A stretch of 64,000 nucleotides of DNA from Promethearchaeota archaeon (GTDB lineage: Archaea; Asgardarchaeota; Lokiarchaeia; Sigyniarchaeales; SOKP01), in assembly GCA_048941285.1 (NCBI GenBank), contig JBHLNS010000001.1, positions 96,001-160,000 on the forward strand. The letters run 5' to 3'. Under the pieces are notes generated by a model. It saw nothing but the letters and a program-made list of their open reading frames with translations, had not been told where the DNA came from and did not search any database. The position numbers were made by a program, and so were the translations under genes. The number at the start of each line of letters is the position of its first letter. The first letter of the stretch is position 1. Below, in pieces: positions 2,131-48,826 of the stretch.

Positions 2131-5124
2131 ATGAGTTATACGTTTTCAAGAACAAAAATGATTGAAAAGATCAAGTTTGGACTTCTAAGCCCTGATGAAA
2201 TCCGAAAAATGTCAGCAGCCCGTATTATAACTGCTGATACATATGATGAAGATGGATTACCTATACCATCTGGATTAATGGACCAACGATTAGGTACCAT
2301 CGAACCTGGGCAACGTTGTCAAACTTGTGGGAATTTAGTAAGTAACTGTATGGGCCATTTCGGGCATTGTTAGAAACAATTAGATTCTAACGCCTAAATC
2401 GAATTAGCCCGTCCAGTTATTCATGTAGGTTATGCTAAAAAAGTCTTAAAAGTTTTACGTAGTATTTGTCCAGAATGTTCACGTTTGATGCTTACAGAGG
2501 AGGAAAAAGAGAAATTTAGAGTAGAACAAGTTAAACACCGAAAAATCTTTTTTGAAGGAGATGAAGACGCGGCAAAAATTGTCTTTAAACGAGCAAGAAA
2601 AGCAAAAAATTGCCCTTATTGCGAGGCAAAAAAGAAAAAAATAATTATTGAAAAGCCGACAACTTTTTATGAGGAAGAAGAAGGGAAAGGTTCACGGAGA
2701 ATAACTCCTATTGAAATATTAGAACGATTAAAAAAGATGAGTGATGTGGATCTTAGGATCCTTGGAATTTCTCCTGAAAATGCTCGTCTTGAATGGGTTG
2801 TTTTTACAGTTTTACCAATTCCCCCCGTATGTGCTAGACCCTCTATTACATTAGATAGTGGTATTCGATCTGAAGATGATTTAACACATAAATTAGTTGA
2901 CGTTATTAGAATTAACCAACGATTAAGAGAAAATATCGATGCTGGAGCACCTCATTTAATAGTCGAAGACCTGTGGGAGTTATTACAATATCATATTACA
3001 ACTTATTTTGATAATCAAGTATCTGGTATACCTCCTGCTAGACATCGATCCGGTAGAGCACTTAGAACCTTAACTCAGAGATTAAAAGGTAAGGAGGGAA
3101 GATTTAGAAGTAACTTGAGTGGAAAACGAGTCGATTTCTCTGCCCGTAGTGTAATATCCCCAAATCCTTATATTAGTATTAATGAGGTTGGTGTTCCAAT
3201 TGAAATCGCAAAAATTTTAACTATACCTACCAATGTTAATGATTGGAATATTGAAGAAATGAAACAGATGGTTTTGAATGGGCCTTTTAAACACCCTGGA
3301 GCAAATTATATTATAAGAAATGATCGTAGAAGAATTGACCTGCGATATGTCAAAAATCGGAAGATTATAGCTGACATGCTTGCTCCAGGTTTTACAATTG
3401 AGCGCCATTTAAATAATGGAGATTTAGTATTATTTAATCGCCAACCATCTCTTCATAGAATGTCGATAATGGCTCATGAAGTAAAAATAATGAAAGGAAG
3501 AACATTCCGGTTAAACCTAACAGTATGCCCGCCATATAATGCTGATTTTGACGGAGATGAAATGAACCTTCACGTACCTCAAAGCGAGGAAGCCCGTACA
3601 GAAGCAGAGCTATTGCTAAAAGTTCAAGAACATATACTGTCTCCAAGATTTGGTGGGCCAATATTAGGTGGTATTCAAGATTTTATTTCAAGCGTATTCC
3701 AATTTACAAGTAAAGAGTCTGTATACACTAAAAAGGATACTTTAAAATTGTTATATACTGGAGATGTATTTAAAAACAATCCTAAATTTAGCTTGGATCA
3801 ACTAACTCCTGTGTTATTTGACCCAGAACCAATGTATTCTGGAAAAGATATCTTCAGTACTTTATTTCCAGATGATCTAAATATTAAAGTTAAATCAAAA
3901 TTTTGTAAAAAATGTAAGGTATGTGAAAAAGAAGATTGCCCCTATGATGCTTATGTTGTAATAAAAAATGGAAATTTAATTACTGGAACTATTGATGAGA
4001 ATTCTTTTGGAGCTATGCAATCAAACAGTATTTTACAACGTATTATTAAGGATCATGGTAACGCACGAGGAAGAATATTCTTAGACAGTGCAACCAAGAT
4101 GCTATTATATGTTATTCGACAGAATGGAATGACAATGGGATTGGATGAAGTATATGTCCATGGTCATGCTTATGAAGCAATCCAAAAAATATTAGAAGAA
4201 GCAAATAAAGAATCTGAAAAATTAATTAACGCATTTTATGAAAATGATACAAAAATTCTTAGAAGAGCTCCTGGTCGTTCAATGAGGGAAACTTTAGAGT
4301 TAAGAATCCGCCAAGTATTGGCAGAAGCTAGAAAAAAAGCAGAAGAAACAGCAGCAGAATTCATTGGAGATGAAGCTCATTCTGTCATTATGACTAAATC
4401 TGGAGCTAGAGGTAATATATTAAATCTTGGACAGATGTCTGCTGTAGTAGGACAACAAGCAATTAGAGGAGAAAGAATTAATAGAGGATATAGTATGAGA
4501 ACGCTCCCTCATTTTAAAATTAATGATTTATCCCCTAAATCGCGAGGTTTTGTTTCTTCATCTTATAGAAATGGATTAAAACCAGAAGAATTCTTTTTTC
4601 ATGCTATGGGAGGAAGAGAAGGATTAGTAGATACAGCTGTAAGAACATCCACATCTGGATATATGCAACGTAGATTGGTAAATGCATTACAGGATATGGT
4701 TGTTGAAAATGATGGCACTGTTCGAAATTCTGATAAAAATATAATCCAGTTCTGTTTTGGAGATGACGGCATTGATGCAATGCACACTGATCATGGTGCT
4801 GCGGTGAACTTGGACGTTTTGTTATTAAAAGCAAAAGCTCTAAATGTTAATGAAGTGCGTGAAGAGATTAAAAAGGGCACTTCAACAAAAAAACTTGAAC
4901 CTAAGAAAAAAGATGAATCTAAGAAAAAAGATGAATCTAAGAAAAAAGATGAATCTAAGAAAAAAATAGCAGAAGAACCTAAATCTGAAGCAGAACCTGA
5001 AAAAGAAGAATTAGATGAAGATTTTTTAAAACAACAATTTGAACAAGAAACTGGGAAAAATGCAGTTTGGCGTGGTAAAGAAACCAATGCATACCTAGAA
5101 TGGAAAGAAAAAAGAATAAAATAA
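2131..5124 (+). CDS. rpoA1: DNA-directed RNA polymerase subunit A' (Rpo1N), join(2131..2367,2398..5124), about 987 aa after removal of a 30-nt intron
   Basis: [35 protein letters not shown]|[34 protein letters not shown]; the ORFs at 2131 and 2485 are in the same frame, separated only by stops inside the insert. Confidence 0.97.
2368..2397 (+). other. Putative BHB/BHL (tRNA-type) mRNA intron in rpoA'
   Basis: Helix GGGC(2362-65)/GCCT(2392-95), bulges AT^T(2366-68) and AA^A(2396-98), inner stem GTTAGAA/TTCTAAC with 9-nt loop; contains in-frame TAG and TAA; removal gives GGG CAT ATC GAA (G-H-I-E). Confidence 0.88.
4903..4965 (+). repeat. 18-bp coding tandem repeat (AAGAAAAAAGATGAATCT x3.5; KKKDES) in the rpoA' C-terminal tail
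   Basis: Identical units start at 4903, 4921 and 4939, with a partial unit at 4957. Confidence 0.95.
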
Positions 5125-5153
5125 AAAATTTTTAAAATAAAAGGAAGATGTAA

Positions 5154-6359: not shown

Positions 6360-6461
6360 CCAAAAACTTTTAATTTAGATGAATTAACTTAAACGTGCCA
6401 AAAAAAAATTAAAAAAGTATCCTTCTTATTACTTATTATATAGAAACTGTTTGAATATACC

Positions 6462-25013: not shown

Positions 25014-25336
25014 AAAGGCTCATTATTCCTTCTTATTCAATAATCTAACTATTCTTTTCTTCCAAATTATTATAAATTTTTTTGTTAATTTATAGTTTGA
25101 ATTATTGAACTTCATCCGAAGTCCAAATTCAAGTTTTGAGTATTTATCTATATTCTAAATTGTTAATTTGTCGTTTGAAATTATTGCATTACAATCTTTC
25201 TTAAGACTCGATAATTTCGCTTAAATATAGTAAAAAATATAAATTCAACAACATTTACAATTAACATCTAATAAAAATAATTTAATATTAAATATTATAT
25301 TCAGAACAAATAAATCATAAAAAATTAAGGAAATTG

Positions 25337-26635
25337 ATGAAAATGGCTGATAAAGAACATTTAAATCTCGTAATAATAGGGCATATAGATCACGGGAAGA
25401 GTACGATGATGGGAGCTATGCTTATTGAAACTGGAGCAGTTACTGATAGAGAAGCTCGTGAATTGGAAAAATTGGCAAAAGAATACGACAGGGATTCTTG
25501 GTCATACGCTTTTGTCTTTGACAGACTTAAAGAGGAACGACAAAGGGGAATTACTATTGATTTAGCGTTTCGAAAATTTGAAACTAAAACCAAATACTTT
25601 ACAATTATTGATGCCCCAGGACATGCTGACTTCGTCAAAAATATGATAACTGGAGCGTCTCAAGCTGATGCTGCTATCCTTGTTGTATCTGGTAAAAAAG
25701 GAGAAATGGAAGTTGGGATCGCAGCTAATGGGCAGACTCGAGAACACGCTTATTTAGCACAAACCTTAGGTATAAAGCAACTTGTAGTTGCTGTTAATAA
25801 AGCAGATGTTTATGATTATTCCGAAGACAGATTTAACGAGTGCAAACAATCTGTTGGTGACCTTCTCAAAAGCATTGGATTTAAGGACGTAAAATTTATT
25901 CCAACAAGTGGGATGCAAATGCAAAATCTTTCAAGGAAAAGCGACAAAATGCCATGGTATGATGGTCCAACTTTGATTGATGCGATAGATCAATTTGTTC
26001 TTCCTGAAAAGCCAACTAACAAGCCTTTAAGAGTACCAATTCAAGATTGTTATAGAATTAAGGGAACAGGTGTTGTTCCTGTTGGCAGAGTAGAAACGGG
26101 AATTTTAAAGAAAGGAGATAAAATAGTTATCATGCCTACTGGGTTTCAAGGAGAAATTCGTTCTATTGAAATGCATCATGAAGAGATTCCACAAGCCATA
26201 CCTGGAGACAATATTGGATTTAGTATTAGAGGTATTACAATGGCAGATGCCAGTAGAGGAGATTGTTTAGGACATCCTTCTAACCCACCAACAGTAATTA
26301 CTCCAAATGGGAAATGGACGGGACAAATTATCGTAATCTGGCACCCTACTGCAGTTGCTCAAGGTTACACCCCAGTAATTCATGCTCACACTGCTCAAGT
26401 AGCAGCACGATTTTCTGCTTTAGTTAAGAAATTAGACCAGAAGACCGGTAGTGTAATAGAAGACTCACCTAAATTTTTGAAAAAGAATGAATCTGCTATT
26501 GTAGAGTTGACTCCGATTAAAAAAATGTGTCTTGAAAAATACGAAGATATTCCTGAAATGGGTCGATTTGCAGTACGTGACATGGGAAGAACTGTTGCAG
26601 TTGGTATAGTAAAGGATATTGTCACAGGAGCATAA
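25337..26635 (+). CDS. tuf: Elongation factor 1-alpha
   Basis: GHIDHGKST, RGITID, DAPGH, NKAD, GRFAVRDMG. Confidence 0.97.
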   Translation: MKMADKEHLNLVIIGHIDHGKSTMMGAMLIETGAVTDREARELEKLAKEYDRDSWSYAFVFDRLKEERQRGITIDLAFRKFETKTKYFTIIDAPGHADFVKNMITGASQADAAILVVSGKKGEMEVGIAANGQTREHAYLAQTLGIKQLVVAVNKADVYDYSEDRFNECKQSVGDLLKSIGFKDVKFIPTSGMQMQNLSRKSDKMPWYDGPTLIDAIDQFVLPEKPTNKPLRVPIQDCYRIKGTGVVPVGRVETGILKKGDKIVIMPTGFQGEIRSIEMHHEEIPQAIPGDNIGFSIRGITMADASRGDCLGHPSNPPTVITPNGKWTGQIIVIWHPTAVAQGYTPVIHAHTAQVAARFSALVKKLDQKTGSVIEDSPKFLKKNESAIVELTPIKKMCLEKYEDIPEMGRFAVRDMGRTVAVGIVKDIVTGA

Positions 26636-34051: not shown

Positions 34052-37000
34052 ATGGTTAAAATTGCTGCTTCACTGAGGAATTTCCGTGATCGTATCAAAA
34101 CCTCAGTATCATTAAAAACGCGTAATGTATTGTTCTTTTTGGCAATATTTTTGATCGTAGTTTTAGCCATCGTTATTAGATTAAGTCCCCTTATAAGAGA
34201 TATAACTTTAATTAAAGCATTTGACCCTTGGATCCAGTGGTATAATGCGGAGTATTTAGATTCTCATACATTATATGAATATTTTTCTTGGCGAGATTAT
34301 AAAAGCTGGTATCCCGAAGGGTTTTTTAGAGGTGGTTTGCGACCTGGTTTGACATTTACTGTGGTCATCTTTCATAAGATTTTAAACTTTTTTGGATTTC
34401 CAATATCGTTGTATGATGTGTGTTTCTACTTCCCCGCGTTTATGGGAGGGTTGACTGTATTAGTAATATATTTCTTAGGTAAAGAAGTGCTTAATCGAGC
34501 AACTGGCTTATTTGCAGCATTTTTCCTAGCTTTTAATCCAGGATACTTACAAAGGACTACAGCAGGATTTTTTGATAATGAGACAATTGGAGTATTTGCA
34601 ACCCTAATGATATTTTTATTCTTTCTGAAAGCTTTACGAACAGGTAAATTTTTGCATGCCGTTATTGGTGGTGTCTTTTTAGGTTATTTGTCCCTTAGTT
34701 GGGGGGGATATCAGTTTGTATATCTAGTAATTCCTTTAATTAGTATCATCTTAATTTTTTCAAATAAATATAGTGAAAATGTCTTAATGTCGTATGCCGG
34801 AGTTCAAGGAACTGGTTTACTGATTTTTTCACTCTACTCAAAATTTAATCCTGCCAATTTATTCTCAAATTTGGACGTTGGAGGTATTTTCTTATTTACG
34901 ATTATTTTAATATTTTTTCATATTATACATACCAAAAAGAATGAGCATCCCAAATTTTATGATCGCTTAGTTAATACAATAAAATGGGGTGCGATACCTG
35001 TTATTCTTGTTATTGCAGTAATAATATGGGTAGCTCCTGATATTTTACCTTTTGGATTTGGTTCACGATTTTGGACAATTCTTAATCCTCTTTTACGAGA
35101 AGACGTAAGCTTAGTTGCTTCAGTAGCAGAACAAATGCCAAGTACTTGGAGTGTATTTTATTATAACACATTAATTCCATTGGTTCTTGTCCCATTAGGT
35201 ATATATTTCTGCTTTAAAAGGTTAAATCATGCAGATATTTTTGTTATCATATTTATTATTTTAATGTATTATTTCACGGGTAGTATGATTCGGATAATTT
35301 TAATATTTGCTCCAGCTGCTGCATTGGCGGGAGCCTATGGTTTAGCAAGTGTGCTGAACATTTTTGGCAGTTTCATTGGAGAAAGAAAAGTAGGTGTTAG
35401 TAGAAAAAGGAGAAAACAATTAAAAGGAACTTTGGGGAGTTCTGAAGTACTAGTAGTTTATCTCCTTGTAGGAATTTTATTGTATGCTCAAGTTGCTCAT
35501 ACTACTGATATTGCTGTTAGACAAATGTCATATGCTCAAATTGTCCCTGGAGGATATTTTCACGATTGGGAAGAATCTTTAACGTGGATGAAAACTAATT
35601 TAAAAGGGACAGATGTAGTAGTTTCTTGGTGGGATTATGGTTATTGGCTTACTCCAATAGGAAATGTGACCACTGTAAATGATAATGCTACAAAAAACTC
35701 GACTAGAATCGGCTTAACAGGAATGTCGTTTATGCAAACAAATGAACTTTATAGCGCTAAAGCATTAAGGCGATTGGGAGCGGATTATGTCTTAGTATAT
35801 TGGGGTTTTTTACTATCAGGATTAGGTGGTGATGAGGGTAAATGGACTTGGATGGTAGAAATATGTAATGATAATTACAATAAGTATAAAAGATTAGGGT
35901 GGGAAGAAGATAATTGGGCTGATAACGATGTGTTTGATATGGAGAATTACGTAAATACAAGTACAGGACTTATGGAGGATGATTGGTTTGATAGTCAACT
36001 TGCTAAACTTTTGTTTTTCCTAGAACCTACTACCGCAGCGGCTGCTCAAGGAAATGAAATTCAAGAACACTATGTCGACCAAATAACTCGTCGACGCGAT
36101 GATGATGGTGATCCATGGATATCTCATATCCCTGATAATGGTTATTATGATTCTATGGTTTTTATTCCAAAATATTTTTCACGATCCCATCTAGTGAAGT
36201 TATATCAAGTTGATTATACAATATTAGATTCCAGTTTTGTTATTAAAAATCCAAGAGTTACTGATAGTGGATATGCTACATTTAAAATAAAGAATACCGG
36301 GACAAAAAAATTGTTCATAAGAGACGTACAAATTAATGGTTCGAATTTTGATTTTTTCATGGCAAATAAAAATATACAAAAAGGTTCTGAAGGGTTAGTG
36401 TGGGTTAACACCACAGATGCTAATTTCCGAATAGACGATGTAGTTAACGTAGAAGTAAGCGCTCAATCAGAAGCATTATCCAACAGACAATATATTTTTT
36501 CCAACCATACTAGTAATTTCTTTGTGAGAGAAGCACAAGCAGGAGAGATAAAGATTAACAAGCAAAATAGTATAGTCATTCAAAACGGGCTTTCTACTGT
36601 TGATTTATACCTTGAAGTAGAAAATACAGGGGATTCAATAGTTGTTTTAGATAGGTTTTATGCCAATAGTGATGTTGTGCAAAATAGGATTGACCCAGAA
36701 ATAATCACTTATTTAAGTGGCTCATCGGTTCTTGAACCCTCAGATAAAGCGTATGTTCTGATAGAGAATGCGAATATCGACTTCTTCCCTATCAAAGAAT
36801 ATAATAAAATCGGTGTAGCGACCCCTAATAACATTTATGACGAATTATTATTCACTTCGAATATTGAAAATTATTCACTTTCAATATTAAGTGAAGATCG
36901 AATTGCCTCTTCAGAAGAACTAGCAATTCTTAATTCAAATTATAGAAAACATATACCAATTGATTTTGATAAATCTTTTGTATATACATATGATAATGGA

Positions 37001-37936
37001 AGTGTAATTTTCAATATATACATAAAAAATACTGGGGATGTCATATTTGGCTTAGATTCAATTTATCTAAAAGAGTCTTTAATAGAAGTTGATAGTGATG
37101 ATTACTATACAAAAAGTGGGTATCTTAATTTGAATAGCAATAAAGAAGACATAATTATTATAGAAATTGACACAAATGATCCAGCTGATAAAAAATATAA
37201 ACTTAGTGGAGAAATTAATGAGGAAATTTTGATATGTATTACTGGAGGTTTTGGAGAGTTAGGAACAGTAGCTTCGGATATTGGATACATACATACTATT
37301 AAGGATGCAGCAAATATTAAAATAATAAAAGAAGTTCAGGGTATTAAGTCATCAATTATTTATGCAAATGAAACGGGAAAAGTTTTAATTAAAAATACAG
37401 GAGATGAACCGATAACTCTCGATGAAATCTATGTGAATAATACTTTAGTAAGTAATATGGAATATACTTACGGTGATTCTTCATTAGCGATGCAAGAATG
37501 CGCAATTATAACATTTGACATTCCCGGGTTAACAATTAATAAGTCAGATGAATGTTTAGTAAGAGTAACTACAACCTCTATGGTAGAAACAATCGAAACA
37601 TTTAATGCATTTGTAGATTCAGCCTATTATGATATCAATATTAATGATGCTGGAACATCGGCATTTGATTCAGGAAGTTTGACAATTTTAGTGAAAAATG
37701 ATGGAGTGTTTAATGTTACACTTGATTCCGTTTATATTAATAATACATACTTTTCTATAAACGCGTTCTCCTCTGACAATGGTTATGAAATTACTGGTGG
37801 TGATTCCGTAGAATTAACAATCAGTATAGCCATAATCGAATCCAAATTTGGAAGTATTAATGTTGATGATATTTTGGAAATTTTGGTCCGCACTCTTGAG
37901 GGTGCTGAAGATATTCACGAAGAAACTGTGAAATAA
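34052..37936 (+). CDS. aglB: Oligosaccharyltransferase AglB/STT3 with long C-terminal beta-rich extension
   Basis: AFDPW, GFFDNE, SVAEQ, SWWDYGYW, DEGK..WM; many TM segments. Confidence 0.93.
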   Translation: MVKIAASLRNFRDRIKTSVSLKTRNVLFFLAIFLIVVLAIVIRLSPLIRDITLIKAFDPWIQWYNAEYLDSHTLYEYFSWRDYKSWYPEGFFRGGLRPGLTFTVVIFHKILNFFGFPISLYDVCFYFPAFMGGLTVLVIYFLGKEVLNRATGLFAAFFLAFNPGYLQRTTAGFFDNETIGVFATLMIFLFFLKALRTGKFLHAVIGGVFLGYLSLSWGGYQFVYLVIPLISIILIFSNKYSENVLMSYAGVQGTGLLIFSLYSKFNPANLFSNLDVGGIFLFTIILIFFHIIHTKKNEHPKFYDRLVNTIKWGAIPVILVIAVIIWVAPDILPFGFGSRFWTILNPLLREDVSLVASVAEQMPSTWSVFYYNTLIPLVLVPLGIYFCFKRLNHADIFVIIFIILMYYFTGSMIRIILIFAPAAALAGAYGLASVLNIFGSFIGERKVGVSRKRRKQLKGTLGSSEVLVVYLLVGILLYAQVAHTTDIAVRQMSYAQIVPGGYFHDWEESLTWMKTNLKGTDVVVSWWDYGYWLTPIGNVTTVNDNATKNSTRIGLTGMSFMQTNELYSAKALRRLGADYVLVYWGFLLSGLGGDEGKWTWMVEICNDNYNKYKRLGWEEDNWADNDVFDMENYVNTSTGLMEDDWFDSQLAKLLFFLEPTTAAAAQGNEIQEHYVDQITRRRDDDGDPWISHIPDNGYYDSMVFIPKYFSRSHLVKLYQVDYTILDSSFVIKNPRVTDSGYATFKIKNTGTKKLFIRDVQINGSNFDFFMANKNIQKGSEGLVWVNTTDANFRIDDVVNVEVSAQSEALSNRQYIFSNHTSNFFVREAQAGEIKINKQNSIVIQNGLSTVDLYLEVENTGDSIVVLDRFYANSDVVQNRIDPEIITYLSGSSVLEPSDKAYVLIENANIDFFPIKEYNKIGVATPNNIYDELLFTSNIENYSLSILSEDRIASSEELAILNSNYRKHIPIDFDKSFVYTYDNGSVIFNIYIKNTGDVIFGLDSIYLKESLIEVDSDDYYTKSGYLNLNSNKEDIIIIEIDTNDPADKKYKLSGEINEEILICITGGFGELGTVASDIGYIHTIKDAANIKIIKEVQGIKSSIIYANETGKVLIKNTGDEPITLDEIYVNNTLVSNMEYTYGDSSLAMQECAIITFDIPGLTINKSDECLVRVTTTSMVETIETFNAFVDSAYYDININDAGTSAFDSGSLTILVKNDGVFNVTLDSVYINNTYFSINAFSSDNGYEITGGDSVELTISIAIIESKFGSINVDDILEILVRTLEGAEDIHEETVK

Positions 37937-38082: not shown

Positions 38083-40089
38083 ATGAGCGTCGGTTTTAAA
38101 TTACAAACGAGTTTTAAACCTTCCGGGGATCAACCTTCAGCGATCTCCACACTTGCTAATAATATAAAAAATGAAAAACGATTTCAAACTTTGTTAGGAG
38201 CAACTGGAACAGGTAAGACTTTTTCAATTGCAAATATTATTCAAGAAATTCAAAAACCGACTTTAATTATGGCTCCTAATAAAACATTAGCAGCTCAATT
38301 ATATAATGAACTAAAAGAGTTATTTCCTGATAATGCCGTTCATTATTTTGTGTCATATTATGATTATTACCAACCAGAGGCATATATGCCAATTACTGGA
38401 TTGTATATAGAAAAAGATTTTAGCGTTAATGAAGAAATTGAACGATTACGATTAGCAGCTGCTCATGCTGTGAGGACTCGCAGAGATGTTATCGTTGTTG
38501 CAACTGTATCATGTATTTATGGCCTAGGTAATCCAGATCTCTGGGAAAAAATTGCCCTTTATTTAGAAGTGGGTATTAAAATTACAAGATCTGAAATTTT
38601 GAAAAAACTCGTTAAAATGAATTATGAACGCAATGAGTTTGAATTTAAACCTGGAAATGTACGAGTAAAAGGAGATATTATCGATATTTACCCGGCTTAT
38701 TTAAATAATGGTGTAAGAGTTTCCTTATTTGGAGATGAAGTCGAATCTATAACAGAAATTAACCCAATATCCAATAATCCTATAAATAAAGTCCCAAATT
38801 ATCGAATTTTCCCGGCTACACATTTTATTATACCGGATGAAAACAAAATTAGAGCTTTAGAGCTTATAGAGGAGGAATTGGAAGAACGGATAAAATTTTT
38901 TAAAAATAAAAAAAGGTACGCTGAAGCAGAATGGATAGAGAGAAGAGTTAAATTTGATTTGGAAATGATGAAAGAGATGGGGTGGTGTAAAGGTATAGAA
39001 AATTATTCTAGACCATTGGATGGTAGGCCACCAGGGACACCACCTATGACTTTAGTAGATTATTTTCCAGAGGATTATTTAATAGTGGTTGATGAATCTC
39101 ATATAACTATACCACAAATCCATGGGATGATAGGTGGCGATCGTTCTCGTAAGAAAAATCTTATAGATTATGGATGGCGTTTACCTAGTGCCTATGATAA
39201 TAGGCCTCTTACATTTGAAGAATGGGAAAGTAAAATTAAATATATAATATTTATGAGTGCTACTCCGGGAGACTATGAAATAAAAAAAAGTGAGGGAATT
39301 TCAGCTGAACAAATAATTCGGCCAACAGGTTTAGTAGATCCTATGGTCGAAATCAGACCTGCTAAGAACCAAATTGACGATTTGTTAGGTGAAATTAGAA
39401 AAGTTATTGAAAAAAATGGTAGAACGCTTATAACAACTCTAACTAAAAGAATGTCTGAAGATATTGCAGAGTATTATAATGAATTAGGATTGAAAATAAC
39501 ATATTTACATTCGGAAGTTGATACCGTAGAGCGGTTTGAAATTTTACGTCAGCTAAGAGATGGAACATATGATGTTTTAGTGGGAATTAATCTCTTACGA
39601 GAAGGATTAGATCTGCCTGAAGTTCAACTAGTAGCAATTTTAGACGCAGATAAACTTGGATTTTTAAGAGATAATCGTTCACTAATTCAAACAATTGGTA
39701 GAGCATCTAGAAATGTAGATGGAAAAGCAATTTTGTATGCAGATAAGATTTCACCATCAATGAAAGCTGCAATAGATGAAACAAATAGAAGAAGAGATAA
39801 GCAAATTAAATATAACGAAGAAAATGACATTACTCCTCAAACGATTAAAAAAAATATATTACAATCTCTTTCAGAGGAGCAAGAATTTAAAGATAAGGAA
39901 ATTAAAAAATTAAAGCAAGTTGTTAAAGATAAGATAAAACAATTAGAAAGAGAGGGAGATTTTGATATAGTTATTCAATTTTTAGAAAACAAAATGTTCA
40001 TGGCAGCGAAAGAACTTAGATTTGAAGATGCTGCTTATTTAAGGGACAAAATAAAAGAAATAAAGGAAACTAACAAAATAAAAGCGTGA
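38083..40089 (+). CDS. uvrB: Excinuclease ABC subunit B
   Basis: GATGTGKT, YYDYYQPEAY, DESH, GINLLREGLD, QTIGRASRN, UVR domain. Confidence 0.97.
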   Translation: MSVGFKLQTSFKPSGDQPSAISTLANNIKNEKRFQTLLGATGTGKTFSIANIIQEIQKPTLIMAPNKTLAAQLYNELKELFPDNAVHYFVSYYDYYQPEAYMPITGLYIEKDFSVNEEIERLRLAAAHAVRTRRDVIVVATVSCIYGLGNPDLWEKIALYLEVGIKITRSEILKKLVKMNYERNEFEFKPGNVRVKGDIIDIYPAYLNNGVRVSLFGDEVESITEINPISNNPINKVPNYRIFPATHFIIPDENKIRALELIEEELEERIKFFKNKKRYAEAEWIERRVKFDLEMMKEMGWCKGIENYSRPLDGRPPGTPPMTLVDYFPEDYLIVVDESHITIPQIHGMIGGDRSRKKNLIDYGWRLPSAYDNRPLTFEEWESKIKYIIFMSATPGDYEIKKSEGISAEQIIRPTGLVDPMVEIRPAKNQIDDLLGEIRKVIEKNGRTLITTLTKRMSEDIAEYYNELGLKITYLHSEVDTVERFEILRQLRDGTYDVLVGINLLREGLDLPEVQLVAILDADKLGFLRDNRSLIQTIGRASRNVDGKAILYADKISPSMKAAIDETNRRRDKQIKYNEENDITPQTIKKNILQSLSEEQEFKDKEIKKLKQVVKDKIKQLEREGDFDIVIQFLENKMFMAAKELRFEDAAYLRDKIKEIKETNKIKA

Positions 40090-40130
40090 AATTTTTCTGA
40101 TATCTTTAATTTAAAAATGTAGAATATAGA

Positions 40131-43004
40131 ATGACGGAAAACTCAATAATAATAAAAGGAGCAAGGCAGAACAATTTAAAAAATATTGACGTTATAATCC
40201 CACGAAATAAATTAGTTGTTATCACAGGGATTAGTGGAAGCGGAAAAAGCAGTTTGGCAATGGATACTCTATATGCTGAAGGTCAACGAAGATTTCTTGA
40301 ATCCCTCTCAAGTTATGCTAGACAATTTCTAGGTGAAATGGATAAACCTGATGTTGATTCAATAGAAGGATTATCCCCTGCGATTGCAATTGAGCAAAAG
40401 CCACTCTCAAAAAATCCAAGAAGTACAGTTGGTACTGTAACCGAAATATATGATTATTATCGACTACTATTTGCTAATGTTGGTACCCCACATTGCCCAA
40501 ATTGTGGAAAAGAGATAAAACCTCAAACACCTCAACAAATAATTCAACAAATATTAAATTCTGTAGATGATGACCAAAAATTTTTAATTAAAGCTCCAAT
40601 CATAAGAGGGAGAAAGGGAGAATATAAAGAACTTTTACAGGATTTAAAGAAACAAGGATATCTAAGAGTAGAAGTTGATGGAATTCAATATACACTAGAT
40701 GAAGACATTTCAATGGAGAAAAACATCAAACATAATATAAACGTAATAATTGATAGGTTAGTTATGCGAAATGATATTAAGACAAGACTCGCAGATTCAA
40801 TTGAAACAGCATTAGAACTAACAGATGGTTTAGTCACTATTGAAATTGTTGACAAAGGGGAACAGATTTATTCTGAACATCTCGCTTGTATTGATTGCGG
40901 GATATCATTTCCACCAATAGATCACAAAATGTTTTCATTTAACATTCCTCATGGAAGTTGTAAATATTGTAGTGGTTTAGGCAATGTCATGGAATTTGAT
41001 TATGCTTTACTATTAGGAAATGATTTAGAGAATACTTTAGAAGAAACTCCCATTAGAGATATCCCAGGATTTGGATCTGAGAATGGTTATTCATGGCAAA
41101 CAATAGTTCAGGTTGCTAAACATTATGGATTTGACACTAATATCACCCCAATTAAAGATATTGATCCTAAGAAGCTTCACAAAATACTATTTGGATCAGA
41201 AGATGAAGCAATAAATTTTCATTTTGAAAATGATAATAATGAATATAGAAATCATAACGGCGAATATAAATCTTCTTGGCAAGTTACACGACCTTTTGAG
41301 GGAATAATTTCAATTCTTCATAGGAGATATATGGAAACGCGTTCAGAATGGGCTCGGGATGTTTATGAGGGTTTTATGAATAGAATAGATTGCCCACAGT
41401 GTAAAGGTCAAAGATTGAAACCAGAAAGTTTAGCAGTAACAGTTAATAGTCTTAATATTGCTGAATTATCTGCCTTATCAGTAAAGGATTCCTTAAAATT
41501 CTTTAAAGATTTAAAATTAAGTGAAATTGAAAAGAAAATTGTTAAAGAAGTATTAAAAGAGATTTTTGATAGACTATCTTTCCTCGAAAACGTAGGTTTA
41601 GATTATATTTCATTAAACCGAAGATCAGATACTTTATCTGTTGGAGAAGCTGAAAGAATTCGATTAGCGACTCAATTAGGTTCTAGCTTAGTAGGTGTTT
41701 TATACGTTTTAGATGAGCCTAGTATAGGACTTCATCAAAGAGATATTAATCGCCTTATCAATATGCTAAAAAAATTAAGAGACTTGGGAAATACTGTTAT
41801 TGTGGTGGAACATGATGAGGCGATTATGCGGAATGCCGATCACATTATTGATTTAGGTCCTTTAGCGGGTGAAAAAGGAGGGGAAATAGTCGCTCAAGGG
41901 GCTATAGAAATTATAACCAATTCAAAAACTTTAACTGGAGAATACTTATCAGGAAAAAGAAAAATTCTAATCCCAAAAAAAAGACGAAGTTTGGGCAAGG
42001 AATATATTGAAATAACAGGAGCGAAAGAAAACAATTTAAAAGATATTGACGTTAAAATTCCCCTAGGTTTATTCACATGTATAACAGGAGTTTCAGGGGC
42101 GGGAAAAACTAGTTTGATTATAGATTGTTTATATAATGGGCTTCATAACTTAATAAATACTCGTAGTTCAAAAGTCAGTGAGGGTAATTTTGATAAAATA
42201 ATTGGATATGAAAATATTGATAAAATTATAAATATTGACCAATCCCCAATAGGAAGAACTCCAAGATCAGTCCCTGCTACTTATACAAAAGCATTAGATT
42301 ATATTAGAGAAATATTTGCTGGATTACCAGAATCAAGGGAAAGGGGCTATCAGAAAGGTCGATTTAGTTTTAACACAAAATCTGGGCATTGCAAAAAATG
42401 TAAAGGTACAGGTTATATTCTAAAAGAAATGTATTTTTTACCAGATGTCTACATAAAGTGTGATTTATGTAAAGGAAAAAGATATAATGCTGAAACATTA
42501 GACATTAAGTATCATGAGAAATCGATATATGATGTATTGAAAATGACTTTCCATCAAGCATTAGAATTTTTTGAAAATATTCCAAATTTAAAAAGAACAA
42601 TTAAAACAGTAGTAGATGTTGGATTGGGTTATTTAGAATTGGGACAATCTTCTACTACTCTCAGTGGTGGAGAATCACAACGTCTAAAAATTGCTAGAGA
42701 ATTGAGAAAAACTAGCACAGGAAACACACTTTATATACTAGACGAGCCTACAACGGGTCTTAGCTCTTTTGATATTAACTATCTCCTGAAAGTCCTTCAA
42801 AAATTAGTAGATAAAGGTAATACAGTAATTATAATTGAACATAATATGGATATTATAAAATCAGTAGATTACATTATTGATCTTGGTCCTGAAGGGGGAG
42901 AAAAAGGAGGTGATATTGTGGCAATAGGAACTCCAGAAGAAATTATTAAAATTGATAGTTCTTTTACTGCTCAATATTTAAAAACATATCTCAATAGCAA
43001 TTGA
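40131..43004 (+). CDS. uvrA: Excinuclease ABC subunit A
   Basis: GISGSGKSS, two ABC modules, LDEPSIGLH, LSGGE, Zn fingers. Confidence 0.97.
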   Translation: MTENSIIIKGARQNNLKNIDVIIPRNKLVVITGISGSGKSSLAMDTLYAEGQRRFLESLSSYARQFLGEMDKPDVDSIEGLSPAIAIEQKPLSKNPRSTVGTVTEIYDYYRLLFANVGTPHCPNCGKEIKPQTPQQIIQQILNSVDDDQKFLIKAPIIRGRKGEYKELLQDLKKQGYLRVEVDGIQYTLDEDISMEKNIKHNINVIIDRLVMRNDIKTRLADSIETALELTDGLVTIEIVDKGEQIYSEHLACIDCGISFPPIDHKMFSFNIPHGSCKYCSGLGNVMEFDYALLLGNDLENTLEETPIRDIPGFGSENGYSWQTIVQVAKHYGFDTNITPIKDIDPKKLHKILFGSEDEAINFHFENDNNEYRNHNGEYKSSWQVTRPFEGIISILHRRYMETRSEWARDVYEGFMNRIDCPQCKGQRLKPESLAVTVNSLNIAELSALSVKDSLKFFKDLKLSEIEKKIVKEVLKEIFDRLSFLENVGLDYISLNRRSDTLSVGEAERIRLATQLGSSLVGVLYVLDEPSIGLHQRDINRLINMLKKLRDLGNTVIVVEHDEAIMRNADHIIDLGPLAGEKGGEIVAQGAIEIITNSKTLTGEYLSGKRKILIPKKRRSLGKEYIEITGAKENNLKDIDVKIPLGLFTCITGVSGAGKTSLIIDCLYNGLHNLINTRSSKVSEGNFDKIIGYENIDKIINIDQSPIGRTPRSVPATYTKALDYIREIFAGLPESRERGYQKGRFSFNTKSGHCKKCKGTGYILKEMYFLPDVYIKCDLCKGKRYNAETLDIKYHEKSIYDVLKMTFHQALEFFENIPNLKRTIKTVVDVGLGYLELGQSSTTLSGGESQRLKIARELRKTSTGNTLYILDEPTTGLSSFDINYLLKVLQKLVDKGNTVIIIEHNMDIIKSVDYIIDLGPEGGEKGGDIVAIGTPEEIIKIDSSFTAQYLKTYLNSN

Positions 43005-43123: not shown

Positions 43124-44929
43124 ATGACCGAAGATGAGAATAAGATAATCAGAGCGCCAATTGTTTGTATACTTGGCCATATAGACCATGGAAAAACCAC
43201 TATTCTAGATTATATTAGAGGTACAGTTGTCCAACAAAGAGAAGCTGCGGGAATTACCCAACATATTGGTGCTTCTTATTTTCCAACCCAAGATATAAAA
43301 GAATTTTTAAGAAAATCTAAACAAGAATTTGCTGAAAAAGAAATAAAGCTTCCAGGAATATTAGTTGTTGACACACCTGGTCATGCTGCTTTTTTAAACT
43401 TAAGAAGAAGGGGAGGAGCAGTAGCAGATATTGCAATTTTAGTTATTGATGTCACCGCTGGAACAATGCCCATAACTTGGGAATCAGTTCGGATTTTACG
43501 AGAGAGAAAAACTCCGTTTGTCATTGCTGCTAATAAAATAGATAGAATATCTGGATGGAAATCAAAAAAAGATGCGGATTTTCTTGATTCCTACAATTCT
43601 CAAAAACCACACGTTAAAGATTTTTTGGATGAAAAGATATTACAAATTATTGGAAATTTCTTAGAAGAAGGCTTTAAGGGAATTGATCGTTATGATAAAA
43701 TAAAAGATTTCACTAAAAAAATTGCTATAGTACCTACAAGTGGAAAAACGGGAGAGGGAATCTCAACACTTTTAATGATTTTAATGGGACTAGTTCAACA
43801 GTATTTAACTTCAAATCTTAGATTTTCTGAGGGCCCCGCGAAAGGAGTTGTTTTAGAGGTCAAAAAAGAAAAAGGTCAAGGAAAAACCATGGATGTTCTT
43901 ATATATGATGGCTTAATTAATAAAGGTGATGAGTTTATCGTTGGTGGATTAGAAAAACCTATCAAATCTAAAGCAAGAGCCTTATTAATTCCTAAACCAT
44001 TGGACGAGATTCGGGATCCAAGGCAAAAATTTGATTCTGTTGATGTTATAAATGCTGCAGCTGGCATTAAAATACTTGCACCTAATATTGATGATGTAGT
44101 GGCTGGATCTCCATTTAGAGGGATATCGGATCCTTCTGAAGAGAAATCTGTTTATGAAGAGATAGAAGCAGAAGTAGAAAGTATTAGGATAAAAACTGAT
44201 AAAGCTGGGGTAGTTTTGAAAGCAGACACATTAGGTTCACTTGAAGCACTTGAAAATCACTTTACAAAAAATGGGGTTAAAATTAGTGTTGCTGATGTCG
44301 GTCCGATTAAAAAGGAAGATATAATTAATGCAAATATTGTTAAACAATTAGATCCCTATTCTGCTGCAGTTTTAGGATTTAATGTTCAGCTTTTACCTGA
44401 AGCTAAAGAACAAGCAATTATTGATAATATAAGAATTTTCACGAATAATGTTATTTATCGATTATTGGAAGAATATATTGAGTATGCAGAAACTAGAAGA
44501 GCCGAAGACACTGCTAAAGGGTTAAGTGAACTTATATTGCCTGCAAAAATCAAAATGCTTCCTGATTTCATATTTCGAAATTCTGATCCTGCAGTTTTTG
44601 GTGTACATGTTGAGGCAGGGACTTTATATCCAAAAGTCCAATTAATAACTGACAAAGGTAAAAGAGTTAGAAGAGTTCATCAAATTCAAGATAAAGGTCA
44701 AACTCTCGATAAAGCGCCTAAAGATTCAGAAGTTGCAATCTCAATTCGCGGAATTGAAATTGGGCGAGATATGGGGAAAGATGAAATCTTATTTGTAAAT
44801 ATTCCCGAATCTCATGTTAGACAGCTAATGGGTCGATTTATCAACGAATTAACTAGTGATCAAAAACAGGCATTAAGAGAATTTGTCACTTTGATGCGAA
44901 AAACAAATCATCCTTGGTGGGGATTTTAG
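43124..44929 (+). CDS. infB: Translation initiation factor aIF5B (IF-2)
   Basis: RAPIVCILGHIDHGKTT, GITQHIGA, DTPGH, KADTLGSLEAL. Confidence 0.96.
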   Translation: MTEDENKIIRAPIVCILGHIDHGKTTILDYIRGTVVQQREAAGITQHIGASYFPTQDIKEFLRKSKQEFAEKEIKLPGILVVDTPGHAAFLNLRRRGGAVADIAILVIDVTAGTMPITWESVRILRERKTPFVIAANKIDRISGWKSKKDADFLDSYNSQKPHVKDFLDEKILQIIGNFLEEGFKGIDRYDKIKDFTKKIAIVPTSGKTGEGISTLLMILMGLVQQYLTSNLRFSEGPAKGVVLEVKKEKGQGKTMDVLIYDGLINKGDEFIVGGLEKPIKSKARALLIPKPLDEIRDPRQKFDSVDVINAAAGIKILAPNIDDVVAGSPFRGISDPSEEKSVYEEIEAEVESIRIKTDKAGVVLKADTLGSLEALENHFTKNGVKISVADVGPIKKEDIINANIVKQLDPYSAAVLGFNVQLLPEAKEQAIIDNIRIFTNNVIYRLLEEYIEYAETRRAEDTAKGLSELILPAKIKMLPDFIFRNSDPAVFGVHVEAGTLYPKVQLITDKGKRVRRVHQIQDKGQTLDKAPKDSEVAISIRGIEIGRDMGKDEILFVNIPESHVRQLMGRFINELTSDQKQALREFVTLMRKTNHPWWGF

Positions 44930-44999
44930 ACTCGATTTTAGTAGTTTAACCTATTATTAATACATATAAGATTGAAAAAAAATTATTTAAACCAACTTT

Positions 45000-46457
45000 A
45001 TGGCTACTATAAATGATATTTTAAGTGAAGTATTAAAAGAGATTACGCCAACAAGTCAAGAAATTGATCGAATCAATCAGATTTCTAAAAATCTTGAACA
45101 ATTACTAGATAAAAAAGCTAAAGAGTTGAAAATTAAATATAATAAAATTGAACCTCAAGGATCAACTGGAATTAAACAAACACAGGTAAAAAATGATTTT
45201 GATATCGATCTCTTTATAGGATTAGACTATAATCAATATAAACCAAAATATAAGGGTTTGAGTAAAAGCAAATTAAAAAAAAAATCAAAAAAAGATTTTT
45301 TGGCGTTATGCAATAAATGGATTCTCCAAAGTCTTACACTAAATGAATTCCATAATCCTCGCCTCTTATATGCAGAGCATCCGTATGTAACAGTAGATTA
45401 CATTTTAAAAAATATAAAAATTAAGGTCGATATTGTTTTATATTTTGATTTAGAGTTAGAATATATTAAGGAACATGGACCTATTACTGCAGTTGACAGA
45501 TCCCCTTGGCATGGCTACTTTGTCAGAGATAAATTAGATCCTAAACAAAAGAATGATGTAAGGCTTTTAAAGCAATTCTTTAAAGCTTGTTATAGTTATG
45601 GTGATAAAAGCGCCGTAGGCAGAGTTGGTTTTATTGGATATAGTGCTGAATTATTAATTTATTATTTTAACGATTTTATTACTTTATTTGAGAATTTTAC
45701 TGAATTAGACAAGAAACCACTAGATTATTATCACAGAAATAAGGATGAATTAAATAAAATTGTTCACTTTCAAAATGATTATCTTATTATTGTAGATCCA
45801 ATAGATAAGAATCGAAATGTTGCGTCTGCAATATCCGATAGAGCATTTAAATATTGTAATCAGAAAATAAATGAATTCTTAGAACATCCAAGCATAGAAT
45901 TTTTTGAACTTAAACCAATACCCGAAGTTGATTTATCTAATAAAGATGATCCTCTCCTTTCGAAAATTTATATTATTGAATTACAGAATATTGATTATGA
46001 TCTCCATTATACTATTAATAGAGATAAATTATATTCTCTGGGAGAAGGCATTAAAGCTAATGGAGAAAAAGAATTTTCTCATGTAGATCGCTTTGGAACA
46101 ATTATATTTGAAGTATACTTCGAAGATGATAAGAATCAGTATAATATAGCCATTTTTTGCGAAAAACCTCAAATAGATGAATCTTATATTCGCAAAGGAC
46201 CTCCCATGACAGAAGAAAGACACGTTGTTAATTTCCAAAAAAAAAATCCAAAATATTTTGAAAGGAACGGTCATTTATGGGTAGAAACTGTCAGAGATTT
46301 TAATAATTTCTCTGATTTTTTAAAAGAATTTGTTAAAGATAAAATTCCTGATAATTTTAATATTAAAAATATCTCGACTGCATTTCAAACCCGTAGTTCT
46401 TCGGGGAAAAAAACAATAAATATATTGAGAAATATTATTTTGCCTCTTTATATTTAA
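45000..46457 (+). CDS. cca: Archaeal (class I) CCA-adding enzyme
   Basis: GS...TQ...D.DIDLF, YAEHPY, TAVDRSPWH, VRLLKQF, DPIDKNRNVASA. Confidence 0.85.
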   Translation: MATINDILSEVLKEITPTSQEIDRINQISKNLEQLLDKKAKELKIKYNKIEPQGSTGIKQTQVKNDFDIDLFIGLDYNQYKPKYKGLSKSKLKKKSKKDFLALCNKWILQSLTLNEFHNPRLLYAEHPYVTVDYILKNIKIKVDIVLYFDLELEYIKEHGPITAVDRSPWHGYFVRDKLDPKQKNDVRLLKQFFKACYSYGDKSAVGRVGFIGYSAELLIYYFNDFITLFENFTELDKKPLDYYHRNKDELNKIVHFQNDYLIIVDPIDKNRNVASAISDRAFKYCNQKINEFLEHPSIEFFELKPIPEVDLSNKDDPLLSKIYIIELQNIDYDLHYTINRDKLYSLGEGIKANGEKEFSHVDRFGTIIFEVYFEDDKNQYNIAIFCEKPQIDESYIRKGPPMTEERHVVNFQKKNPKYFERNGHLWVETVRDFNNFSDFLKEFVKDKIPDNFNIKNISTAFQTRSSSGKKTINILRNIILPLYI

Positions 46458-46543
46458 ATTCATAAAATTTTTATGATTTCCCGAATTCTTTTCCATAATT
46501 ATAACATGAGAATTTAATTTAATACATACGACGTGAACTAAAT

Positions 46544-48826
46544 ATGGTTAAAGTGAAAAACCCAGAAGAAATCGCTAAACTAGTAACTTCTGGTTCATAT
46601 GAGAAGAAGAGAATATTTTCAATCACAGCTCATATAGATCATGGCAAAACAACTGCCACAGATTATCTTCTTCGAAGAGCAGGATTAATGAGACCTGAAG
46701 ACGCTGGCCAGCTCCAAATGACAGATTCAGATTTAGATTAAGGCTTACTTGATCTACTGAAAGATGAGGAGCAGGAACGAGGCATCACGATCTTCACAAG
46801 TGTAGTCTTACTTGCATTCAACGATCCAAGAAAACCAAAAGATGACGAACCTTATATTATACAACTGAATGACACTCCTGGTCACATAAGCTTTACCGGA
46901 GAGGTATCCCGAGCCCTTAGAGGTTCAGATGGTGCTATAGTATTAGTGGATGCTCTTGAGGGGGTCATGACTCAAACAGAAACTAATATAAGGTTATCTG
47001 TTGGTGAAGAATACTGTAAACCTGTCCTTTTTATAAATAAGGTCGATAGATTGATTAGCGAATTAAAACTCAGTCCTCAAGATACTTTTGCAAAAATCGA
47101 CAAAATTACTAGAGAAGTCAATGATTTGATAAAAAAAGTAAGACCAGAAGGGTCGGATTGGAGTATAGATTTTGCGAAAAATTCCGTTGCAGTTGGTTCA
47201 GCTAAACATGGGTGGGGTTTCACTTATGAAATTTTACTTGAAAAGGGTTTGAAACCTCAAGATGTTTTTGCTAAATACAATGAAGGGGATATTCAATGGT
47301 TAAGAGATAATTTACCCCTAGATGAACCAATGTTAAGAATGATCGTAGATCATCTCCCAGATCCTATTACCGCTGCGAAGTATAGAATACCACATATATG
47401 GGGTGGTGATTTAAACTCAGAGCTAGGGCAATCTCTTATAAGGAGTGACCCAAAAGGAAAATTGTATGGGATGATTACAAAAATTTTCCTAGATCCAAAA
47501 AGAAATTATCAAGCTACACTTATAGGCCGCGTTTTTTCGGGTACTTTTGATCAAAGCGATACACTGTATCTTATTAACAGTGATTCTCAAAGTCGAGTGA
47601 AGAGACTTGGAGTCATGGAAATTACAGATATTTTAGATATTCCAAAGATTCCCGCGGGTAATCTATTTGCATTATATGGATTCATTTCTCCATCTGGAGA
47701 AACTTTCATTAACGCAAATGATGTACCTAAAGATAAAGAGGAAAAGAAGAGAATTCCTTCTTTTGAAAAAATACATTACGCTTGTGAAGCTGTTGTTTCC
47801 AGAAGTATCAAACCAAAAGATCCACATGATATTGATAAATTAGATGAAGTTGTATCCAAATGGTTAAAAGCAGATCCGACAGCAGAATACAGAAGAGATG
47901 AAGAATCAGGAGAATTTATTTTATCGGGAATTGATCCATTACAAATAGAGATTTTAGTTAAGAGGATAAACAATCAAGTCCAAATTAATATTGGAGAACC
48001 AATTATCGTTTATAGAGAAAAAATTACTCAAAAAAGTCCTGATTTTTATACAAAATCTGCGAATACACATAATCGTATCTTATTATATATTGAACCCCTG
48101 GATGAAACTACTGAGCGGTTAATCGAAACTGGTAAAGTAAATGATTTACAAAATGAGAAAGAAAGAGCTCAAATTCTTAGAGAAGAAGCTGGATGGGATG
48201 CTAAAGAAGCAAGAAGAATTGTTGATTTATATCATGGAAGCGTTCTTGTAAATGGTACCTCTGGATTACAGAGATTCGATCGTGTTAAATCTTATTTAAG
48301 TGCTGCTTTTAGGGATTGGCTTGGTGATTGTATACTTGCAAAAGAGCCTGCTGCTGGAATTAAAGTCGTATTCACAGATATGACAATACATGAGGATACC
48401 AGACATACGTCTTATGGTCAGATTGCAGGAATGTTCTTCTCAGCCGTTTCTTTAGCTATGTTAGATGCAAAACCACATCTATTTGAGCCAATCCAGAGAA
48501 TAGATATAAAATCACCACAAGGAACAGAAGGAAGTGTAAGTACTATTATTACAAAACGCCGAGGTCGGATTACTAACGTTATTCCCGAAGGAGAATATGT
48601 GAGGATTCAAGGTCAGATTCCAGCAGCAGAGACAATAGGACTTGCTGACGATATTAGAGGCTCAACAGCCGGAAGGGCATTTTTTGGTTATGAATTCTTA
48701 GGATTTGAAAAAGTTCCTCCCAATCTTGAAGAAGATATCATTATGGAAATTCGCAGAAGGAAAGGTATGCCATTAGAATTACCTAATAGAAAGAGTTGGG
48801 AGAGATTTATTTACAAAAGAACCTAA
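46544..48826 (+). CDS. fusA: Elongation factor 2 (aEF-2 family), join(46544..46732,46763..48826), about 750 aa after intron removal
   Basis: AHIDHGKTT, TDSD|DEEQERGITI, NDTPGH, NKVDRL, EPIIVYRE, RGSTAGRA; both ORF pieces are in one frame. Confidence 0.95.
46733..46762 (+). other. Putative BHB (tRNA-type) mRNA intron in EF-2
   Basis: Helix TCAG(46727-30)/CTGA(46757-60), bulges AT^T(46731-33) and AA^G(46761-63), inner stem TAGATTAAG/CTTGATCTA with loop GCTTA; in-frame TAA; removal gives TCA GAT GAT GAG (S-D-D-E). Confidence 0.9.

Follow-up and report, generated by a model that had tools for sequence, protein, structure and literature searches.

The window considered here is a stretch of 64,000 nucleotides from a Promethearchaeota archaeon (G000:C1:96001-160000; G-numbers denote genomes in the census below, L-numbers denote named genome_contigs loci, and G000 is this genome), taken from an assembly of 3.55 Mb with 29.7% G+C in 101 contigs. 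It contains the genes for RNA polymerase subunit A' (rpoA', also Rpo1N) and elongation factor 2 (EF-2), both interrupted early in the coding sequence by a 30-nt insert that resembles the bulge-helix-bulge introns of archaeal tRNAs (Table 1). The two inserts had been described in an initial annotation of this DNA, and each point of that description (positions, bulges, the TTAGA and TCTA motifs, in-frame stops and phase 0) is present in the sequence. The location of the EF-2 insert also stands, except that its end was given as 46765, an overshoot of 3 nt from the true end at 46762.

Table 1. Interrupted genes of the window and the predicted splicing motif of each insert (window coordinates).
Feature	Position	Strand	Description and basis
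rpoA' exon 1	2131..2367	+	RNA polymerase subunit A' (Rpo1N); codons 1-79, ends in GHFGH; translation
rpoA' micro-intron (predicted)	2368..2397	+	30 nt, phase 0, after codon 79
rpoA' bulge-helix-bulge motif	2362..2398	+	minimum-free-energy fold; pair counts on 9 homologous introns
rpoA' motif, central helix	2362-2365 with 2392-2395
rpoA' motif, bulges	2366-2368 (5'); 2396-2398 (3')
rpoA' motif, inner stem and loop	2369-2375 with 2385-2391; loop 2376-2384
rpoA' exon 2	2398..5124	+	IELARPV to stop codon; 908-aa open frame
EF-2 exon 1	46544..46732	+	codons 1-63, AHIDHGKTT P-loop, ends in DSD; translation, alignment to relatives
EF-2 micro-intron (predicted), "site B"	46733..46762	+	30 nt, phase 0, after codon 63
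EF-2 bulge-helix-bulge motif	46727..46763	+	minimum-free-energy fold; pair counts on 19 introns
EF-2 motif, central helix	46727-46730 with 46757-46760
EF-2 motif, bulges	46731-46733 (5'); 46761-46763 (3')
EF-2 motif, inner stem and loop	46734-46740 with 46750-46756; loop 46741-46749
EF-2 exon 2	46763..48826	+	DEEQERGITI to stop codon; open frame

The two inserts share one architecture, consisting of a 4-bp helix between exon and intron, a 3-nt bulge, a 7-bp stem with a 9-nt loop, and a second 3-nt bulge; the inner stem and its loop are an addition to the earlier description. Both carry TTAGA close to the 5' end and TCTA close to the 3' end, and the four bases that precede the final AA complement the four exon bases that precede AT. 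In rpoA', exon GGGC pairs with intron GCCT (one G-U pair), and in EF-2 exon TCAG pairs with intron CTGA. The 5' bulge is AT^T in both introns, its third base being the first base of the insert, and the 3' bulge reads AA^A in rpoA' and AA^G in EF-2. In an archaeal bulge-helix-bulge motif, the 5' exon pairs with the 3' portion of the intron to build the central helix, and both introns display its defining geometry of two opposite 3-nt bulges, a 4-bp helix and predicted cuts two bases into each bulge. This motif is the minimum-free-energy fold of both inserts (ViennaRNA), with z-scores from -2.0 to -3.2, the latter for the 47-nt EF-2 piece. The rpoA' fold includes extra exon-exon helices of 4 bp and 6 bp outside the motif.

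Read in frame, the rpoA' insert contains two stops (TAG and TAA) and the EF-2 insert one (TAA). Removal of exactly 30 nt joins GHFGH to IELARPV in rpoA' and DSD to DEEQERGITI in EF-2, which restores motifs that relatives have uninterrupted. All 29 relatives with an rpoA' match (first draw of 30; 17 from the same genus) read GHFGHIELARPV without interruption, and the 30 nt are thus truly extra sequence. The protein encoded by rpoA' exon 1 is identical or near-identical to the uninterrupted N-termini of relatives, and the first 200 aa of exon 2 share 93-98% identity with same-genus orthologues. EF-2 reads DSDDEEQERGITI without interruption in 12 same-genus genomes, and an insert of the 30-nt type seen in the window occurs in 5 of 18 genomes of the genus (G016, G007, G001, G013 and G017).

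Both genes are alive and evolve under strong purifying selection. The dN/dS values are 0.028/1.23 for rpoA' against uninterrupted orthologues (exon 1: dN 0.027 and dS 1.59 against G009) and 0.04/1.09 for the whole of EF-2 against G014, with exon 1 similar to the rest; the ratios thus lie at about 0.02-0.04. The genome holds a single rpoA' match, and EF-2 is accompanied only by a 45%-identical paralogue. That second gene (G000:C66:76070-76681; 45% identity over 200 aa, 730-aa open frame) agrees with the Asgard EF-2 paralogue described in the accessible part of PMC6143161, and a gene of the same kind is also present in most relatives.

The rpoA' insert stands in a second assembly as well, since a Logan contig from run X1 spans it unchanged (window 2139-2444, zero differences, zero gaps), although X1 may be the same sample. 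Loose ends in X1 also show the uninterrupted form of the gene, evidently from relatives, and runs X2, X5 and X7 give no cover over 2308-2409 at 90% likeness.

The initial annotation had set beforehand that its reading should fall if homologous inserts lacked structural covariation and if no further cases existed. The covariation is strong. In a set of 19 distinct introns drawn from four sites, pairs form in 96.7% of cells against 75.5% in column shuffles (0 of 500 reach the observed value), and across nine rpoA' site-1 introns 94.9% against 74.7%, these contrasts being overstated by the relatedness of the compared introns. Changes on both sides of a pair affect 10 of the 11 pairs in the larger set and 7 of 11 in the rpoA' set, where they cover all 7 inner pairs. 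The exon-intron helix varies in step with the exon: GGGC goes with intron GCCT, GCCC or GTCT, and where the Gly codon is GGA instead of GGG (exon GGAC) the intron carries GTCT, which means that the helix tracks a synonymous exon change. At the paralogous P-loop positions, exon ATGG is met by CCAT and exon ATTG by CAAT, each in both EF-2 and EF-1alpha. The EF-2 site-B intron differs by 7-23% between species and the four-fold sites of the gene by 45-68%; because the intron diverges less than these sites, it is either constrained or recently spread.

Further cases are numerous, and all lie in relatives. EF-2 inserts are found in 26 of 135 family genomes, this one included, and in 0 of 19 genomes from three sister families (154 genomes of one order in total). 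They contain in-frame stops and add 27-39 bases, mostly 30 (twice 30 in G017). The inserts were read in sequence for 19 of the 26 genomes, and for G007, whose contig ends inside the intron. Five EF-2 sites are used (AH|IDHGK, HID|HGK, DHG|KT, TD|SD and SD|DE). Among 80 named genome_contigs loci, 17 have at least one insert and 13 have one at site B.

For rpoA', inspection of the sequences places inserts in 16 genomes (including this one) among 145 with a match, all 16 in the same family. At site 1 (GHFGH|IEL), the one used in the window, nine genomes have an insert of 30 nt, while G094 has one of 31 nt and G045 one of 40 nt, so that 10 other family genomes share it. Site 2 lies five bases downstream, within a Glu codon, and holds 35, 50 or 85 nt, with boundaries inferred from the protein and from TATA-TATA pairing. 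Site 3, in the Leu codon of DEDGLP, holds 30 nt in G132 and G116. Two genomes, G137 and G069, have introns at both sites 1 and 2, which leaves an exon of 5 nt between them. The two 85-nt site-2 introns (z -3.3 and -2.5) fold with three helices, an outer one of GGGC with GCCC, a central one and an inner one; the 50-nt intron adopts the same fold shape but does not outdo shuffled sequence (z -0.5). In G138 and G073 the rpoA' match begins at a contig end.

The same type of insert occurs in two other translation GTPases. The initiation factor gene aIF5B has it in 2 of 75 genomes with a match (30 or 32 nt, in the P-loop at DHG|KT; the match of G057 lies at a contig end), and EF-1alpha in 7 of 74, with six inserts at DHG|K (three of 33 nt and three of 32 nt) and one of 29 nt at HID|HGK. 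A break in the aIF5B of G041 was considered as an intron and set aside, as it resembles a deletion or frameshift. UvrA, a control gene of similar length from the same window, carries no insert in any of 76 genomes with a match, and in each of the 9 loci inspected the stop recorded inside UvrA or its paralogue is the natural one. The earlier description's confinement of the introns to information-processing genes is based on four positive genes and one negative control. All ten sites fall within the first 81 codons, in searches that spanned 601-778 residues per protein. Insert lengths of 29, 31, 32, 35, 40, 50 and 85 nt, none a multiple of three, occur at shared or adjacent sites and still restore the frame on excision; because of such lengths, the several stops and the ten extra residues that would lie inside catalytic motifs, read-through is excluded.

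The host had been described as Asgard-like, in agreement with its closest EF-2 relatives, which mostly bear the names Promethearchaeota or Promethearchaeia, used for Loki-type Asgard archaea. Public labels around this gene are uneven. Loci L064-L143 have EF-2 86-95% identical to that of the window, yet are labelled Hermod-, Hod-, Thor- or Odinarchaeota or Promethearchaeota; public phylum names are thus inconsistent for what genome classification treats as one genus or family. One locus (L103, DATKTW010000124.1), titled "Candidatus Nanopelagicaceae bacterium", encodes an EF-2 86% identical to the archaeal one of the window and is probably a mislabelled or contaminated bin.

Within this genome, no third intron is found by motif, reading-frame, repeat and covariance scans of named geometries. 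The first motif scan (4-bp helix, 3-nt bulge, stem of at least 5 bp, length 18-110) returns 178,592 matches, of which 553 pass a reading-frame test, compared with 478 on the opposite strand, and the combined scan is therefore without power. With the limits tightened to a maximum length of 60 and a minimum stem of 6 bp, 166 candidates pass against 131, and 35 pass when the bulges are required to be AT and A, compared with 25-33 in five control dinucleotide sets. In these whole-genome motif and frame scans, only the rpoA' and EF-2 loci have long frames of a conserved gene on either side; among the other 33 passes, the 7 inspected look false, resembling natural gene starts or ends or having non-coding "exons", and the remaining 26 were judged from the list. 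A covariance model, R1, applied to 150 of 8,485 first-look candidates of this genome recovers the two known introns and one weak match (E 5.5). In 100 family genomes it yields one match each in 12, taken as EF-2 by score alone, and it is too EF-2-like for finding introns of other genes. Neither 30-mer has a second copy in this genome within 7 substitutions, so that the inserts are not a repeat family. The shared "system" proposed at the outset accordingly stands across the family, whereas within this genome it has just two members, on the basis of limited geometries and some of the candidates.

The enzymes expected for tRNA-type splicing are encoded elsewhere in the genome; the initial annotation had already placed the splicing genes outside the window. 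Two genes, on contigs C70 and C68, belong to PF01974, one with and one without the catalytic His. The first encodes an EndA of 198 aa whose best solved match, 3p1z_B (E 9e-35), is end-to-end, with the His- and Lys-bearing motifs aligned; 3p1z is presumably the Aeropyrum enzyme. The catalytic triad of EndA is Tyr-His-Lys. The second gene encodes a paralogue of 201 aa that is without that His, and the pair may be read from sequence as a catalytic alpha and a structural beta subunit. RtcB is present as one gene on contig C69 (family match E 1.6e-170). In the accessible text of PMC5829648, Asgard archaea are credited with an (alpha-beta)2 EndA with the loop that is tied to broad specificity, and the heteromeric form is reported, in the parts available, to accept relaxed motifs outside tRNA (PMC2738675; PMC5829648).

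Taken together, both inserts are best explained as bulge-helix-bulge introns in mRNA that would be spliced by EndA and RtcB, a reading to which a probability of roughly 0.85 is given. The tRNA-type character proposed earlier is consistent with all the evidence gathered, namely structure, covariation, exact excision, selection on the exons and enzymes. In outline, the gene would be transcribed with the insert included, and the four 5'-exon bases before the last two would pair with the four intron bases before the final two of the intron, forming the central helix. A 3-nt bulge would then lie on each side of this helix, and the 7-bp intron hairpin would close the structure. Heteromeric EndA, with one catalytic and one structural subunit, would cut two bases into each bulge, and RtcB would ligate the exons to give GHFGH-IELARPV in rpoA' and DSD-DEEQERGITI in EF-2. 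The 30-nt intron would be released as a small linear or circular RNA, probably a circle.

Several observations weigh against this explanation. The case is built on DNA, from which cleavage and ligation are inferred, and confirmation of the rpoA' insert in DNA comes only from run X1, which could be the source sample itself. In rpoA' the outer exon-exon helix is weak (3-4 bp, set apart by a 5-nt 3' bulge), and in EF-2 it is nearly absent (about 2 bp); the motifs of the window are of the relaxed, rather than the canonical, bulge-helix-bulge type. Among relatives, the introns in the aIF5B of G045 and at rpoA' site 3 form only three of the four central pairs, and the fold of the aIF5B intron is no better than shuffles (z +1.2). 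Slid partners leave only 28-46% of cells paired across the 19 introns, a contrast inflated by the derivation of the structure from the very sequences counted. Finally, the "system" holds at the level of the family and not of the genome.

A more specific proposal, made at the outset, keeps the splicing and adds a purpose, in that the introns would be retained as a switch that makes the output of RNA polymerase and of the translation GTPases depend on EndA/RtcB activity. On this account, mRNA left unspliced would yield just a peptide of 63-80 residues. All host genes found are transcription or translation genes linked to growth rate, all sites lie in the first 81 codons and intron sequence is more conserved than synonymous sites, as such a device would have it. 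The proposal is nevertheless unlikely, since presence and absence vary among species of one genus, with 109 of 135 family genomes free of any EF-2 intron and 29 of 29 first-draw relatives free of the rpoA' intron. Sites and lengths vary too, where conservation would be expected of a fixed regulatory device, and the conservation of the intron is equally explained by the need for spliceability or by recent spread.

Removal at the RNA level by another agent, either a different structure-specific nuclease and ligase pair or a self-cleaving RNA, is very improbable. It draws some support from the poorer performance, in some archaea, of EndA on relaxed motifs whose outer helix is weak. The motif geometry nevertheless matches EndA substrates, no known self-splicing intron is as small as 30 nt and the window has no Rfam match at gathering thresholds; moreover, catalytic and non-catalytic EndA are both encoded, which is the make-up of the form that the accessible literature reports to take relaxed motifs. 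Group I and group II introns have a ribozyme core of hundreds of nucleotides, and are set aside given inserts of 30 nt and the same negative Rfam result for the window. An intein is ruled out by the stops inside both inserts, which prevent translation with the host protein.

In programmed translational bypass, known from gene 60 of phage T4 and from the mitochondrial "byp" elements, the insert would stay in the mRNA and the ribosome would hop across it, aided by a hairpin and a stop; matching take-off and landing codons flank the gap in the known examples. The inserts have some of this appearance, with a stop within two codons of the 5' junction followed by a stable hairpin and, in EF-2, GAT codons both before and after the insert, and bypass tolerates lengths that are not multiples of three. 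However, a GAT-to-GAT hop in EF-2 would lose one Asp relative to all orthologues, and the CAT before the rpoA' insert has no counterpart at its 3' end (the insert ends CCTAA and ATC follows). Two inserts with a 5-nt exon between them would require two successive hops, and the covarying exon-intron helix, the fixed 3-nt bulges and the predicted cuts, which at every site lie two bases into each bulge, are the geometry of an endonuclease substrate, for which bypass has no need. Bypass is thus hardly credible.

Broken genes, or artefacts of assembly or binning, can be dismissed with near certainty, even though standard gene calling would give split genes with stops and the rpoA' insert is known from one metagenome-assembled genome and a Logan contig, perhaps of the same sample: both genes are essential, rpoA' has a single match and exon 1 shares the low dN/dS, the inserts show compensatory changes, and inserts at the same sites recur in dozens of assemblies from several submitters, including L083 (CP070805.1), whose record title gives a complete chromosome, whereas a genuine artefact, the EF-2 "split" of G096 (C111:23944-24041), looks quite different, with a run of N and 27 codons duplicated on both sides from scaffolding.

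On the reading as EndA/RtcB-spliced introns, the inserts are best read as repeatedly gained, possibly mobile elements that are tolerated because a broad-specificity endonuclease removes them. Repeated gain and loss follow from their presence in a minority of species, their lack in most close relatives and their variable site and length. Repeated gain is further indicated by an identical 9-nt loop in the EF-2 introns of sites A and B, by similar ends in the introns that occupy the paralogous HID|HGK position of EF-2 (G034) and of EF-1alpha (G041), and by the use of one P-loop position in three paralogous GTPases. In the GTPases EF-2, EF-1alpha and aIF5B the recurrent sites lie in the P-loop and switch region, and in rpoA' they lie around GHFGH-IEL; since inserts cluster in such ultra-conserved sequence, transfer between species by recombination is possible. 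That the introns would have no function for the cell, rather than being a built-in regulator, is the weakest part of this explanation.

An origin as remnants of introns with a homing endonuclease, also suggested earlier, finds no backing, as no longer insert with a reading frame is seen at these sites. Large in-frame inserts do exist in the rpoA' of four relatives (G095, G075, G079 and G055), at a different site from the micro-introns and of an intein-like kind. Near residue 461 their matches are split into 1-461/466 and 455-778 with about 1.5 kb between, within one open frame of 1,485-1,524 aa (1,040 aa in G055, with parts on different contigs), and the interruption looks like an intein in RNA polymerase subunit A'.

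It may tentatively be proposed that, in the archaeal lineage closest to eukaryotes, these micro-introns are members of a mobile population dependent on an endonuclease, with a route of spread that is pure inference. The four intron bases before the 3' bulge would serve as an exon-binding guide, and an excised intron would re-insert by a reversed EndA/RtcB reaction, the motif being formed in trans. Targets would be abundant mRNAs that offer the matching four-base word followed by a purine-rich dinucleotide, and the insertion would become fixed in DNA through reverse transcription and recombination, or through interspecies recombination via the ultra-conserved flanks. Such a population would explain the shared GTPase positions, the neighbouring sites, the patchy presence and the 5' proximity. 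If true, Asgard protein-coding genes would still be acquiring introns whose removal depends on proteins.

Archaeal mRNAs with introns of the endonuclease type are already known in the case of cbf5. The cbf5 pre-mRNA intron of Crenarchaeota (Aeropyrum, Sulfolobus, Desulfurococcales) is ascribed, in the accessible part of the source, to a relaxed hetero-oligomeric endonuclease, and has been gained and lost among relatives (PMC2738675). The present introns share with it the mRNA host, the patchy presence and, on the reading preferred here, the endonuclease type. They differ in lineage (Asgard/Promethearchaeota) and in host genes (rpoA', EF-2, EF-1alpha and aIF5B), and also in occupying several sites per gene, with positions reused in paralogous GTPases, a length of mostly 30 nt and an exon of 5 nt. 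Splicing of the cbf5 intron was shown experimentally, whereas here it is deduced. What is new is therefore the lineage, the host genes, the multiple sites with paralogue reuse, the uniform micro size, the 5-nt exon, and the presence and absence between related species. Endonuclease-spliced introns in archaeal protein-coding genes are documented essentially for crenarchaeal cbf5 alone, and no description of such introns in Asgard protein-coding genes was found in the literature within reach, which excludes subscription journals and supplements.

Archaeal and Asgard tRNA introns provide the closest comparison in mechanism, with the same motif geometry and the same enzymes. Archaeal tRNA introns measure 11-175 nt according to the accessible text of PMC2738675, a range that includes 30 nt. 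Lineage-specific, repeated intron gains are described for Asgard tRNA genes in the available part of a preprint (10.64898/2026.10.13.758758), the main text of which does not contain the word "mRNA". In an mRNA, by contrast with a tRNA, the motif must form from coding sequence, and a translating ribosome competes with its folding. The same preprint cites, in the part available, the transposition of tRNA introns in Thermoproteales (Fujishima et al., 2010) as a positive control. There, related intron cores are likewise found at different sites, while no intron reuse is detected within the present genome. Among eukaryotes, the likeness is with HAC1 and XBP1, where a small mRNA intron is also removed with no spliceosome involved: an endonuclease acts on paired stem-loops, and a ligase of the tRNA type follows. 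RtcB has a role in the splicing of these mRNAs, as far as the partial sources go. Their nuclease, however, is Ire1 and not EndA, and they form a dedicated stress switch, which is not shown here.

If both inserts are indeed spliced by EndA and RtcB, archaea without a nucleus would remove protein-dependent introns from mRNA, which bears on the origin of mRNA splicing, and the route by which such introns arrive is now directly testable. There is also a practical consequence. In the output of annotation pipelines these essential genes will appear split or broken, which distorts completeness estimates and pseudogene counts for the family, and marker-gene phylogenies are affected too, as EF-2, RNA polymerase and EF-1alpha are standard markers.

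The window contains further identified genes, all uninterrupted here: EF-1alpha (25334-26635), aIF5B (43124-44929), UvrB and UvrA (38083-43004), an STT3/AglB-type oligosaccharyl transferase (34052-37936) and a CCA-adding enzyme (45000-46457). Two other open frames match no Pfam family at E 1e-5, one of 497 aa on the minus strand (372-1865) and one of 740 aa on the plus strand that runs off the window (61779-63998). Across the whole genome, which is 94% complete, ARAGORN reports only 13 tRNA genes, seven of them with introns, among which is a doubtful 1,953-nt "intron" in a tRNA-Glu on contig C81. Most tRNA genes of this genome are probably interrupted in ways that ARAGORN misses.

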